Shown here piece by piece: positions 9,998-42,775 of a stretch of 64,000 bases of DNA. Under the pieces are notes generated by a model. It ran no database searches. It saw only the letters and a list, made by a program, of their open reading frames with translations, and had not been told where the DNA came from. Position 1 is the first letter of the stretch, and every line of letters starts with the position of its first letter. The position numbers were made by a program, and so were the translations under genes. Source of the DNA: Candidatus Aminicenantes bacterium (lineage in GTDB: Bacteria; Acidobacteriota; Aminicenantia; Aminicenantales; JAFGBC01); NCBI GenBank assembly GCA_963702005.1, contig OY969696.1:992001-1056000 (forward strand). The letters are read 5' to 3'.

Positions 9998-10039
9998 AGG
10001 GCGGATGTCCCGCAAGGGGCCTCCGCCCTTTTTTATTTT
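9998..10039 (+). terminator. Rho-independent terminator of the repeated family
   Basis: AGGGCGGATGTCCCGCAAGGGGCCTCCGCCCT plus T-tract; nearly identical to 14751-14789. Confidence 0.85.
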
Positions 10040-10245
10040 AGGGGAGATTTCCGTCTACTTAGTCGCTCGCCGTCTGGAGGCCGACCCCGTCTTGAGTTCA
10101 ACCTGGCGTTCGATGACGCCCCGATTTATCATTCCCTGCGACGTTATGAGTTAAAATTGGCGGATGAACGCTCGCTTGGTCGGCGTAGCAGAAAACGAAA
10201 TTCCCATAAATAAATCACTTGAAAAAGGATCAAGCTGAATCTCGG

Positions 10246-10273
10246 GCCTAATATAACGGGTATTATCGACGGA
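10246..10273 (-). other. dif/Xer-like site (tentative)
   Basis: Minus strand TCCGTCGATAA-TACCCG-TTATATTAGGC: 11-6-11 layout with inner ATAA/TTAT as in dif. Confidence 0.3.
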
Positions 10274-10320
10274 TAGAATTGTATTAGCATTAGATATTCA
10301 AGTTCAATGATGGAGGAAAT

Positions 10321-10500
10321 ATGAGAAACTTAGCGCGACTCATTTTGGGACTCATATTATCGGCGTGCCTTATTTATAGTCAAACCACGGAGAAAAAATC
10401 AGGCACCTTTAGCGATCCCCGTGACGGTGAAGTTTATCGGTGGGTAATAATCGGAAATCAGGTATGGATGGCGGAAAATCTGCGATTAAGAACGGACTAG
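10321..10500 (+). pseudogene. Truncated FISUMP (Fibrobacter succinogenes major paralogous domain) protein
   Basis: GGAGG RBS. MRNLARLILGLILSACLIYSQ...FSDPRDGEVYRWVIIGNQVWMAENLRLRTD*: the diagnostic DPRDG..Y..V.IGNQVWMAENL start is followed by a stop after 59 aa. Confidence 0.75.
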
Positions 10501-10537
10501 GACTGACTTTCGAGCCCAGCCCCGCACCGACCGGCCC

Positions 10538-40678: not shown

Positions 40679-40740
40679 AGGCTGACGAACTTGATATCCT
40701 CCAGGCAATCGAGTTATCCTCTGTTCAAAAGGAGGGATTT

Positions 40741-41520
40741 ATGAAACACAACAAGCCGTTGGCCTCGATCTTGGGGCTCATCGTTATCCTCGGCGTCTTG
40801 CCCGCCGCTATTCGTTCCCAGGAAGCTCAGCCGCAGCTCTATCTCGCGGGCGATTTCCTGGCCGACACCTCTCGAGTCGGCGAATATGAGGCGGCCCTCA
40901 AGGAACTCCTGGCCAACCTGGAAAAGCACGGCTTCCCCTTTCGCCTCGATATCTACAGTACGCACGACAGCCATTATTACCTGGTCTTTCCATTAAAAAA
41001 CTATGCTGACGCCGACCTGTGGATTAAGGCCTGGGGAGAGTTGGGGCGGAAGATGGGGCCGCAAAATCTGCAGGCGGTTCATGGCCGAATCGTCGCCTGC
41101 GAGATCGAACGCGTCTATCAGTTCTGGTATTACCGTCCCGATATCTCGTTTCTCCCGGAAAAGGAGCGCTTAGAAACGGAAGAAATCGGCTATACCACCT
41201 GGGATTTCGTCTGGGTCATCCCGGGGAAAGAGGCGGAATTCGAGGCCATCAACAAGGAGTGGATCGCCCTTAGCAAAGCCAAGAAGGCGCGGGATCCTTT
41301 CTTGACCTTTGTGGGCGACCTGGGCACGAAGATGCCGGTTTATGTCTGGATGGAGTACGGTAAAAGCGCCGCGGATTATGCCGCCGCGGAAGAAATTTTC
41401 TGGAAGGGGATGGGGGAGGAGGGCGCCGCGCTGTCGAAGAGGACCCGGGCCCTTATCAGGAAAATGGAGTCGAAAACCGGACGGTATCGGCCCGACCTCT
41501 CCTATGCCCCGAAGAAATAG
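40741..41520 (+). CDS. Secreted hypothetical protein, possibly two NIPSNAP-like alpha/beta barrels
   Basis: GGAGGG RBS, signal peptide, duplicated halves ending YRPDISF and YRPDLSY. Confidence 0.8.
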   Translation: MKHNKPLASILGLIVILGVLPAAIRSQEAQPQLYLAGDFLADTSRVGEYEAALKELLANLEKHGFPFRLDIYSTHDSHYYLVFPLKNYADADLWIKAWGELGRKMGPQNLQAVHGRIVACEIERVYQFWYYRPDISFLPEKERLETEEIGYTTWDFVWVIPGKEAEFEAINKEWIALSKAKKARDPFLTFVGDLGTKMPVYVWMEYGKSAADYAAAEEIFWKGMGEEGAALSKRTRALIRKMESKTGRYRPDLSYAPKK

Positions 41521-41534
41521 CCCATCCGGTCTTT

Positions 41535-42536
41535 CTACAGTCCGATGGCGATCCCCGCTTTCAGTTGAAAGCCGGAGATGTCCAGGAAAAACCTGGTTGT
41601 GCCTCCCCAGTAGGACCAGTAGGAAGCGTCGTAATTATTGCCCGCCATCAAACCATAGAGACGGCCCCAATCTCGATAGACATCGTACGGAACCTGCAAC
41701 CACAGCTTGTCGTCCCAATTTTCGGAGTGGACGATCGGTTCAGCGCCGGGGTTCCGAATTTCCGTTCGGAGGGTTCCGGGGCCCTTCAAATCGGAGGTGT
41801 GGCGGAAGGCGAAGCCGCCTTCGGCGAAGAGGCTGAGAAATTTCACCGGACGGATGCGGAGCCGGGCGCCTATCTCGCCGCAGATTCCGGTGTTACGGCC
41901 GGTCATATCCAAGATCGTTGTCGTTTCGTAGCGCCGGCCTTGGCTGTCGACGATGATATCGCGGCGTTCGAAGCTGGACCGGCACTCGGCGAACATCGGG
42001 CCGCCGCCGATGAACAGCTCGAACCGGAGCGCCGATAGAAAGTTCCATCCGAAGCGCGCCTGGAGTTCCGGAATCCAGCCCGAGGCCGAGAGTTGGAAGG
42101 AGGGGAGGCGGTATTCGGCGCCGCTCCCGTCGGGGGCGGTGACGACCATGCCGACGGTGGAACTGCGGTCGCCTTTCACGCGCTGAATCCCGAGCGACAA
42201 AGTGAGCGTTGGGGTGGCCTTGTAGGTGAGGCGGACGCCGAATGGGAGGACGCGGTCCAGGGACCGGATCCGGGAGTCGCCGGTCCGGGTCGTTGTCGCA
42301 TCCTTGCCGTAAATGAATTCGTATTTATCGATGGTGAAAAAATTCAGGTAGGATTCCTCGTACCGGGAGATGGTGTTGAGCTCTTTGGGATTGATTTTCG
42401 AGAATCCGCCGTAGATTTCCAGGCCGAAATTGGCGAAGCTGAACGGTAAGCCTTGTTCTTGGGCTTGGACGGGCTGCGGAAAAATGGCGATACAAGCGGC
42501 GAAGAGAGCGAATACGACCCCATATCTTGTTTTCAA
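41535..42536 (-). CDS. Outer-membrane beta-barrel-like protein
   Basis: TTG start after AAGGAGG; signal peptide; alternating beta-strands; C-terminal GFQLKAGIAIGL. Confidence 0.75.
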   Translation of the reverse strand: MKTRYGVVFALFAACIAIFPQPVQAQEQGLPFSFANFGLEIYGGFSKINPKELNTISRYEESYLNFFTIDKYEFIYGKDATTTRTGDSRIRSLDRVLPFGVRLTYKATPTLTLSLGIQRVKGDRSSTVGMVVTAPDGSGAEYRLPSFQLSASGWIPELQARFGWNFLSALRFELFIGGGPMFAECRSSFERRDIIVDSQGRRYETTTILDMTGRNTGICGEIGARLRIRPVKFLSLFAEGGFAFRHTSDLKGPGTLRTEIRNPGAEPIVHSENWDDKLWLQVPYDVYRDWGRLYGLMAGNNYDASYWSYWGGTTRFFLDISGFQLKAGIAIGL

Positions 42537-42644
42537 GGCATCCTCCTTCTCGCTGTTTCCATGGTCGAGATGATGATATTTGGGATAACGGGGATAATCA
42601 TAATATCCAATTATAATACGTCGGAACGAAGAAAAATGTTACCC

Positions 42645-42775
42645 GGGCGGCGAGGCGCGGCGGCCGGTCCTGATTGCTCGCTCCTAGAACCGATTCTTCA
42701 ATCCCCTCGCGGGATCCCACGGACGTAAGTCCGTGGAGCTTCAGGGCGGATTTTCAATTTTGGGAAGTCCGCTCA
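42645..42775 (+). pseudogene. RRM 3' remnant plus terminator containing a mini-element
   Basis: GGCGCGGCGGCCGGTCCTGA...ATTCTTCA[mini-element]GGGCGGATTTT..GGAAGTCCGCTC. Confidence 0.65.
42701..42743 (+). mobile_element. 43-bp palindromic mini-element (copy 2)
   Basis: ATCCCCTCGCGGGATCCCACGGACGTAAGTCCGTGGAGCTTCA inserted after TTCA; absent at 35276. Confidence 0.65.

Follow-up and report, generated by a model that had tools for sequence, protein, structure and literature searches.

Truncated copies of an RRM gene behind an rRNA operon mark a possible IS91-associated gene-capture array in an Aminicenantes bacterium

The genome of Candidatus Aminicenantes bacterium GCA_963702005.1 (G000; a single contig of 4.31 Mb) contains, in a stretch of 64 kb that we refer to as the window (G000:C1:992001-1056000), a series of truncated copies, or relics, of a small RNA-binding (RRM) gene, rbp, with unrelated genes lying between them. 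We found that these relics belong to one array of 16 rbp-derived segments, all on the + strand, which follows an intact copy of the gene, rbpA, located beside the 5S rRNA gene 17 kb to the left of the window, and in which relics of an IS91-type insertion sequence (IS) are over-represented. The reading that we favour, and to which we give a probability of about one half, is that the region from rbpA to approximately 43-47 kb of the window is a chromosomal zone of gene capture with the layout of an ISCR1 complex class 1 integron, which would have grown by one-ended rolling-circle transposition together with homologous recombination between rbp copies. An earlier note on this DNA had described the relics and had proposed that the rbp locus is an integron-like platform for repeated gene acquisition. 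The observation itself is confirmed and extended here, and the proposal is partly supported: the zone does look like a cassette-like acquisition platform, but its mechanism does not appear to be integron-like.

Results

The intact gene and its relics

Relics were mapped by whole-genome BLASTN, by local alignment and by alignment with relatives, using as the query an 880-nt sequence made up of rbpA with flanks of 300 nt on the 5' side and 250 nt on the 3' side (coding sequence, q301-630). Positions in this query are given below as q numbers, and negative window positions lie to the left of the window. The intact gene, located by a six-frame motif scan and BLASTN, encodes 109 aa (genome 974629-974958) and starts 220 nt after the sole 5S rRNA gene, at the end of a 23S-5S operon. 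The 16 segments derived from it follow at genome 986.6-1034.8 kb, and rbpA and its relics together span 61 kb of the 4.31-Mb genome. Outside this array the whole-genome search returned only two paralogues (diverged intact copies of rbp are present at 1.1226 and 1.4714 Mb), low-complexity matches, copies of a small palindromic repeat and one weak terminator-like match at 4.008 Mb. The segments, including the pieces of the 3' untranslated region (3'UTR) and of the terminators, are as follows.

Genome 986605, 987784, 989089 and 990190, + strand: four rbp segments left of the window, by BLASTN and local alignment
9988..10053, + strand: rbp 3'UTR and type I terminator (q738-804, 91% identity), terminator-like by scan
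10510..10538, + strand: rbp coding relic of 28 nt (q525-552), score 39 (highest score in shuffled sequence, 26)
12394..12419, + strand: rbp coding relic of 26 nt (q370-395), 25/26 identical
14690..14787 (match 14710-14787), + strand: rbp tail (last codons GGR.RY*) and type I terminator, behind a + strand DUF7948/SBBP gene
15847..15934, + strand: internal rbp relic, q403-436 joined to q467-520
18811..18877, + strand: rbp relic (q372-440), with 32 nt identical to rbpA
20094..20366, + strand: rbp relic (q327-502), a small repeat (TCCCCTTCGCGGGATTGCACGGACGTAAGG..) and a type II terminator at 20309-20366
35237..35330, + strand: rbp tail and type II terminator, matching the 3' end of the intact rbpA of the congener G001
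36488..36744, + strand: old rbp relic with a start-region piece, q463-570, a 50-nt palindromic mini-element (36657-36704) and the tail, cut off from its own terminator at GTCAA by a miniature inverted-repeat transposable element (MITE; 36745-37065)
37066..37149, + strand: rbp 3'UTR and type II terminator, part of the 36488 relic
40590..40680 (match 40607-660), + strand: rbp tail and half of a type II terminator
42640..42775, + strand: the last relic, with rbp tail, the small repeat seen at 20270 and a decayed type II terminator

The junction at relic 40607 is bridged independently by a metagenome contig (X3, record 21), from a run that may be the source sample of the genome. All ten positions at which the earlier note had placed relics were found by BLASTN and local alignment to hold rbp-derived sequence of the + strand, the one given as 40500 being in fact at 40607-660, and the 32-bp identity that it reported between two relics is exact (18846-18877 versus 20176-20207). 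Its list lacked the pieces at 12394-12419, 20309-20366 and 37066-37149 and the four segments left of the window. The array begins 27 kb earlier than it had supposed, at rbpA, and its statement that no copy is intact applies to the relics of the window, but not to rbpA. The clustering and common orientation that it expected were borne out by the whole-genome BLASTN, with 16/16 segments on the + strand in one 61-kb stretch.

Anatomy and age of the relics

A complete rbp 3' end consists of the tail of the gene, the 3'UTR and an intrinsic terminator, and 11 separate 3' ends with a terminator were counted (rbpA, gA, gC, gD, 9988, 14710, 20309, 35237, 37066, 40607 and 42645); four or five other relics are internal pieces of rbp. 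BLASTN found the 5' leader and promoter region (q1-239) in none of the 16 relics. The relic pieces are 26-375 nt long, the longest being the duplication of ~375 nt in gA, and their left ends scatter from q327 to q738. Five tail relics in two genomes begin within a span of 10 nt that lies 14-24 nt ahead of the stop codon, among the final, GGC-rich codons. The common starting point of the relics at 15847 and 18846, after ..CAAG in rbpA, is anecdotal.

The terminators are of two types. Those of type I, which are 87-95% alike, belong to rbpA and the five proximal relics; those of type II belong to the five distal relics and also to each of the three G001 copies, the intact rbpA of that genome among them. 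The relics show a polarity, supported by the terminator types, in which those proximal to rbpA are young and the distal ones old. The proximal copy gA differs from rbpA by 7 changes, all of them synonymous, and w20094 by 10 synonymous and 5 non-synonymous changes; the older relics w36554 and w15881 carry random changes (4/3/6 by codon position in w36554). The synonymous bias in gA and w20094 therefore indicates that these copies were once working genes, here or elsewhere, before they were truncated.

Several small elements lie in or beside the rbp copies. The MITE, of ~114 nt and with more than 60 copies in the genome (window 36745-37065; L003 12035-12148), occupies a GTCAA (TTGAC when read on the opposite strand) within the rbp 3'UTR, and its site is identical in G000 and G001. 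A nested palindromic mini-element of ~50 nt (GCCGCTTCGGCCTGT-ACTCATGrG..CyCATGAGT-GCG) is inserted in GC-rich coding DNA (window 36657-36704; genome 974568-974605, 975002-975039, 990196-990233, 5485-5531 and 8713-8759), its sites being the Gly-rich end of rbp copies, the rbpA 5' and 3'UTRs and the C-terminal relics of IS91-type transposases. An IS110-family element split into two open reading frames (ORFs; genome 987835-989026, window -4165..-2974) lies inside a small repeat, with TCCCCTTC on one side and TTCGCGGGATTCCGCGGACCTAAGTCCGTCGAG on the other. This repeat is joined to rbp at q503, the same rbp-repeat junction occurs at window 20269, and four related IS110 copies are present elsewhere.

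rbp in related genomes

The 5S-rbp adjacency was present in all seven genomes with a 5S gene on the fetched locus. Matches to rbp were found in 27 of the 31 genomes searched, G000 included, and matches no more than 60 kb apart on one contig were always on a common strand. Intact co-oriented copies, tandem or dispersed, are common in the order, with three in tandem in G017, three in G018 and three across 52 kb in G003. Because the interval between the last two copies of G003 is syntenic with G011, co-oriented rbp paralogues are ancestral and can persist stably. The genomes seen to have truncated relics were G000, G001, G019 and G017. In G017, three tandem rbp genes are followed by an IS relic, 10 kb of radical-SAM, methyltransferase and flippase cargo with no mobility gene, and a 5'-truncated copy of rbp3, which runs from codon 31 to the 3'UTR and is 96.7% identical over 276 nt.

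A conserved 5' leader precedes all 17 intact rbp copies examined, as well as rbpB, across the order (L001 2480-2628, genome 974480-974628, and upstream of every rbp copy in L002-L023). Its layout is ATAAAGG..GGGGCACGGGCCC..CATACTCCTCTCCTTTATT, followed by a variable GC hairpin and AAAGGAGAcGAGTATG. The leader, which has no Rfam match, is a candidate cis-regulatory RNA of RRM genes, and its pyrimidine tract could pair with the ribosome-binding site. In the Rfam scan, no family reached its gathering score in the window, and in the 20 kb to the left of it only the rRNA genes scored above chance.

IS91-type transposase relics

Behind the rbpA terminator lies an ORF for a degenerate transposase of the IS91 family (Pfam Y2_Tnp, 18 bits; its paralogue at 4.15 Mb gives 51 bits). 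The transposase has 1729 homologues, of which the full-length ones are of ~422 aa with Zn_Tnp_IS91 (PF14319) and Y2_Tnp (PF04986), and several are named as Aminicenantes transposases. This copy, IS#1, begins ~35 nt after the rbpA terminator and points in the same direction; IS#2 lies 2.5 kb further on, and the unit layout in G000 is rbpA, IS#1, 11 kb and relic gA. A tblastn search with full-length queries gave 22 IS91-type coding relic loci in G000, of which 5 are in the 61-kb array, against ~0.3 expected, and all 5 are on the + strand. Relics of the right end of the element are found at -16279, -1467, 10092 and 15945. The IS relics listed for the window are as follows.

10092..10212, + strand: IS91-like right-end relic just after the terminator relic, with the left-end-like GGGGAGATTTCC before the right end
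15945..16015, + strand: IS91-like right-end relic, 88.7% to a G001 copy
23057..23213, + strand: IS91-family (Y2_Tnp) transposase relic, residues ~252-367, by tblastn
33673..33768, + strand: relic of an IS91-family transposase (aa 241-272), where the beta-helix block 33745-35110 begins on its left side
35150..35242, + strand: relic of the C-terminal part of an IS91-family transposase (aa 385-415), directly adjoining the rbp tail that follows

The relic at 15945..16015 contains a promoter-like TTGACA-17-TATCCT (site 15947) that faces a kinase gene, and a second such site, TTGACA-18-TATCAT, lies at 18897-18926 behind the rbp relic 18811..18877 and faces the EamA gene. These are the two best promoter-like sites in 9.9-20.5 kb, and both are just behind relics.

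The association of the two sequences extends beyond G000. A co-oriented IS relic within 300 nt behind an rbp copy was present in five of nine genomes examined (G000, G001, G013, G017 and G019) and was not found in G003, G011, G018 or G025. The five belong to genera g1, g10 and g13, which are the three with truncated rbp copies. The junction from terminator to IS start is 83% identical between G000 and G013, although their rbp coding sequences are only 75% identical. The IS91-type subfamily of interest has the left end GGGGGGATTTCCGGCACGC; the intact IS copies in G017 and G023 carry a left-end palindrome, CGTCAACGCCGGTTGACG, which is missing from the copy behind rbpA.

Cargo and its rearrangement

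The cargo between the relics consists of unrelated genes on both strands, as the earlier note had described, in blocks of 0.8-15 kb with up to 10 genes. It includes peptidase M55, GWxTD/TPR proteins, TonB-type barrels, Usp and a family of large unnamed proteins; a beta-lactamase-fold protein, DUF7948/SBBP, DUF4097, two Ser/Thr kinases, Dabb and EamA; and a TFR-dimer fragment, a sulfatase, PEMT, a beta-helix protein, a nucleotidyltransferase (NTase; 35432..36427, - strand, in a block, 35238-36660, that is 90% identical to G001 C292) and a NIPSNAP-like protein. Thirteen small or large cargo ORFs gave no Pfam or NCBIfam name. Block duplication was considered as a source of the cargo and rejected: the cargo proteins have their best paralogues outside the array, a single family within 2568-9977 being the exception, so that the cargo was not made in this way.

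Gene content differs between close relatives at this place and the flanks are conserved, as in a hotspot of horizontal gene transfer (HGT). No orthologue of window 1-20000 was found in G001 or G002, and core synteny with G001, at 80% identity, resumes at ~47.4 kb. The few cargo genes common to G000 and G001 are 86-94% identical and have been moved or permuted, which agrees with the claim of the earlier note that the rbp locus is a zone of repeated gene acquisition. The NTase block with both of its flanking relics lies directly after the intact rbpA in G001 and 52 kb away from it in G000. The order of the distal cargo is ORF103-kinase, NIPSNAP, g41535, AAT in G000, g41535, X, NIPSNAP, AAT in G001, and g41535, ORF103-kinase, NIPSNAP in one metagenome strain, and every junction of these between-strain differences is at an rbp relic. 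G001 C133 brings the left flank of relic 42645 together with the right flank of 40607; in metagenome contig X3 (record 20), 41504-42578 is fused to 37072-37987, with sides of 926 and 1075 nt; and contig X5 joins 37070 to 42703, the block between having been deleted. The metagenome junctions were taken from contigs and not from reads, and show presence, not frequency. Two other joints, 28630->40594 and 30935->43783, had sides below 30 nt and were set aside as probable paralogue or repeat artefacts. At the sharp ends of the mobile beta-helix block (33745-35110), neither repeats nor a duplicated target were found.

Three other regions of variable or unusual content were observed. The first part of the window (535-9977) is a run of large + strand genes with a third-position GC of 0.87-0.93, among which 2568-4385, 5400-8228 and 8229-9977 are mutual paralogues; these genes gave no informative Pfam or NCBIfam family, apart from weak TPR matches in one, and no G001 or G002 orthologue. 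Two DUF7948/SBBP genes at 52837-57267 are missing from the otherwise syntenic G001 C349, and a 90% identical piece of this region is found on G001 C199, where an rbp relic and an IS91-type relic lie next to it. A second variable spot was found at L014 (G001 C407) 6300-11100, corresponding to G000 614-619 kb, where G001 has the beta-helix gene between the orthologues of G000 608-614 kb and 619 kb, flanked by several fragments of IS91-type transposases.

Recombinases near the array

The window has no integrase, as the earlier note had stated, and no tyrosine recombinase was found from 399 kb to 1.54 Mb, the whole genome having 12 matches to PF00589. Serine recombinases (PF00239) were found only at 1.51 and 1.54 Mb, none near the array. 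A profile made from the 11 integrase domains of the genome itself found nothing in six-frame translations of the relatives' loci L001-L023 and of G000 960-1065 kb (control, 9e-56). The only IntI-like sequence, a truncated ORF of 173 aa (genome 3940761-3941219, - strand), is 2.9 Mb from the array; it is the best match to TIGR02249, covering positions 163-315, the C-terminal half, at 238.6 bits, which is below the cut-off. The repeats of the array are pieces of rbp coding sequence, 3'UTR and terminator with variable starts, and do not have the architecture of attC. As there is neither an integrase nor an attC-like site, the array is not an integron. The suggestion that it is an integron-like or att-site system is not supported, given the variable left ends, the bidirectional blocks of 0.8-15 kb, the ordinary nature of the tail and terminator, and the missing integrase.

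Discussion

A possible origin of the array

In a model that has been proposed for ISCR elements, circles are rescued by homologous recombination. A similar course of events could account for the rbp array. Rolling-circle transposition starting at the IS right end (oriIS) would overrun the left end into rbp, as a one-ended event, and would yield circles with an rbp 3' fragment, the IS and adjoining DNA. Such circles, or circles formed by recombination of one relic with another, could then enter the resident rbp by a homologous single crossover, and each entry would regenerate an intact rbpA beside the 5S gene and push the earlier 3' end downstream. Repeated rounds, followed by deletion and by MITE and IS insertion, would produce the array, and later recombination between relics the permuted and deleted forms. 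The relic terminators would end the upstream + strand cargo genes, and the promoter-like sites at the IS right end would face downstream cargo. Overrun followed by crossover would explain the 3' bias of the relics, their variable starts, their common strand, the polarity of the terminators, the absence of an integrase and the confinement of the relics to the vicinity of rbp. Since all G000 copies of the IS are broken, present-day shuffling would depend on host recombination. We also put forward, more tentatively, that an IS91/ISCR-type element adopted the rbp 3' end as a "conserved segment" and so may have given rise to a self-extending chromosomal gene-capture array in Aminicenantes, in which the rbp tails would act as portable recombination sites and host recombination alone may suffice to excise cassettes, to shuffle them and to exchange them from strain to strain.

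Several observations weigh against this origin. None of the 22 IS91-type loci in G000 holds an intact transposase, and a recognisable IS relic is found right behind only ~5 of 14 relic positions, with none behind -5399 (gA), 14710, 37066 or 40607. A target tetranucleotide (CTTG/GTTC) next to oriIS is a hallmark of IS91/ISCR elements; no shared tetranucleotide was seen by eye at the left ends of the relics. The homology of the IS right ends stops near GAAATTnTTAT with no constant flank that would define oriIS, terIS or the target tetranucleotide, and the promoter-like TTGACA region may be part either of the IS or of its target. Cargo also moves without relics, the beta-helix and PEMT orthologues being at other chromosomal loci in G001. 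A search of the complete genomes G000, G017 and G023 gave no rbp fragment that had travelled with the IS to a site far from rbp, so that homologous recombination alone could explain the local pattern. Furthermore, G001 is a draft in 500 contigs, and the order of its array is therefore only partly known.

The last of the biological points leads to an explanation in which the hotspot results from host homologous and illegitimate recombination only, with the rrn-5S-rbp block and the rbp copies serving as homology arms and the IS relics as passengers. DNA of relatives could have come in by double crossover, by Campbell-type entry of circles or by homology-facilitated illegitimate recombination. 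This is close to the alternative of homology arms in the earlier note, which came near to what the evidence favours but missed the IS91/ISCR relics. The 5S-rbp adjacency in 7/7 genomes, the long duplicated pieces of rbp (276 nt in G017, ~375 nt in gA), the joining of permuted and deleted forms at relics and the restriction of relics to the neighbourhood of rbp are all in its favour, and in the hotspots without mobile elements described in PMC5635113 recombination is placed at the flanking core genes. ComEC and DprA are encoded in G000 but also in most control genomes, and therefore carry no weight. Host recombination by itself leaves unexplained why 0/16 relics have the 5' part while 10 keep a terminator, why truncated relics occur only in genera with an IS behind rbp, and why co-oriented IS relics are in 16-fold excess in the array; moreover, G003 and G011 have three co-oriented rbp copies with a stable order between two of them. 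We regard it as a possible explanation, though on balance an unlikely one. It is more doubtful still that the relics mark no acquisitions at all and come from the decay of an old family of tandem or dispersed rbp paralogues, in which extra copies arose by duplication on the spot and were stripped of promoter and 5' part, with unrelated DNA landing between them. Intact co-oriented copies are indeed common in the order (three each in G017, G018 and G003), and the random substitutions in w36554 (4/3/6) are those of an old pseudogene, but at least 11 separate 3' ends stand against 3-4 copies in relatives, and the cargo paralogues outside the array, the terminator polarity, the strong asymmetry between 5' and 3' parts and the position of the NTase block (adjoining rbpA in G001, 52 kb off in G000) are not those expected of simple decay.

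Site-specific accretion, like that of an integron or a tRNA island, in which an unrecognised or distant recombinase would use the rbp tail and terminator as an att site, seems very improbable to us. Integrase islands, as described in PMC4383910, are recognised by a regenerated target and a 3' fragment that has been displaced, and the array has an intact rbpA followed by 10 further 3' ends, with the same pattern in G017; the start of five tail relics within 10 nt in two genomes and the shuffling of cassette order without inversion also fit. On the other hand, there is no integrase in the island and no recombinase nearby, the IntI-like piece being truncated and 2.9 Mb away; there is no constant crossover position, the starts of the other relics being scattered over q327-q738; the duplicated stretches exceed the length of typical att cores; and the cargo is carried as multi-gene blocks in both orientations and not as single promoterless co-oriented cassettes. 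The combination of IS91-type overrun with crossover at rbp remains, for these reasons, the reading that we prefer.

Comparison with known systems

As described in PMC6218425, ISCR1 lies 24 bp behind sul1 of the integron 3'-conserved segment (3'-CS), with a variable region downstream and outward promoters, and PMC4839121 describes the variable region as lying between ISCR1 and a second 3'-CS. The rbp array resembles the complex class 1 integron of these accounts in having an IS91-related gene tens of bases behind a conserved gene and in the same direction (24 bp for sul1, ~35 nt for the rbpA terminator), a variable region, a closing second partial copy of the conserved gene and outward promoter-like sites. 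It differs in being anchored on a chromosomal housekeeping RRM gene beside an rRNA operon and not on a 3'-CS, in its lack of an integron, resistance genes and a plasmid, in the degenerate state of all its IS copies, in having up to 11 nested units versus one or two, and in its host, an uncultivated Aminicenantes bacterium. According to PMC13181058, IS91-family elements replicate from oriIS to terIS with circular intermediates, and 1-14% of events overrun terIS and mobilise adjacent DNA; co-mobilisation of DNA at the left end, as set out there, would give rbp 3' fragments with variable 5' ends. The element behind rbpA shares with IS91, IS801 and IS1294 the family domains Zn_Tnp_IS91 and Y2_Tnp, and no inverted repeats were seen; unlike one-ended transposition in those elements, no rbp fragment was found at a distant site, and all copies of the element in G000 are fragments.

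The Islander-type islands at the 3' ends of tRNA, tmRNA or protein genes treated in PMC4383910 likewise have a regenerated target, displaced co-oriented 3' fragments and tandem accretion, whereas the rbp array has no integrase, variable starts, very small units and an RRM gene as the target. The hotspots of Oliveira, Touchon and Rocha (2017) that are poor in mobile elements show a similarly high turnover at one spot, for which recombination in the flanking core has been proposed (PMC5635113), but in the rbp array the flanking core gene has been copied many times and an IS family is tied in. Integrons proper (IntI, attI and attC) are alike in that the units end in a repeated hairpin element and that their order varies between strains; the array is unlike them in the lack of IntI, in repeats that are gene tails with an intrinsic terminator, and in multi-gene cargo of either orientation. 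As a gene fragment that recurs with its hairpin terminator can pass for a cassette array, claims of integron-like systems need a check for IS91-type relics.

Conclusions

Our literature search listed nothing relevant on genomic islands of Aminicenantes, and the few searches bearing on rbp-anchored arrays gave no paper on them. To our knowledge, almost all known cases of gene capture of the ISCR type come from the resistance plasmids of clinical bacteria, and arguments about the mechanism still proceed from sequence. The same architecture is here present in the chromosome of a member of an uncultivated phylum of sediments and wetlands, on a housekeeping gene and in several genera, and the rbp array would provide an independent natural series of junctions for the cooperation of one-ended rolling-circle transposition with homologous recombination. 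It also suggests that a core gene next to an rRNA operon can become the anchor of a hotspot of horizontal transfer. If the capture-array reading is true, the array would be a natural counterpart of the complex class 1 integrons, unrelated to resistance and distributed across several genera.

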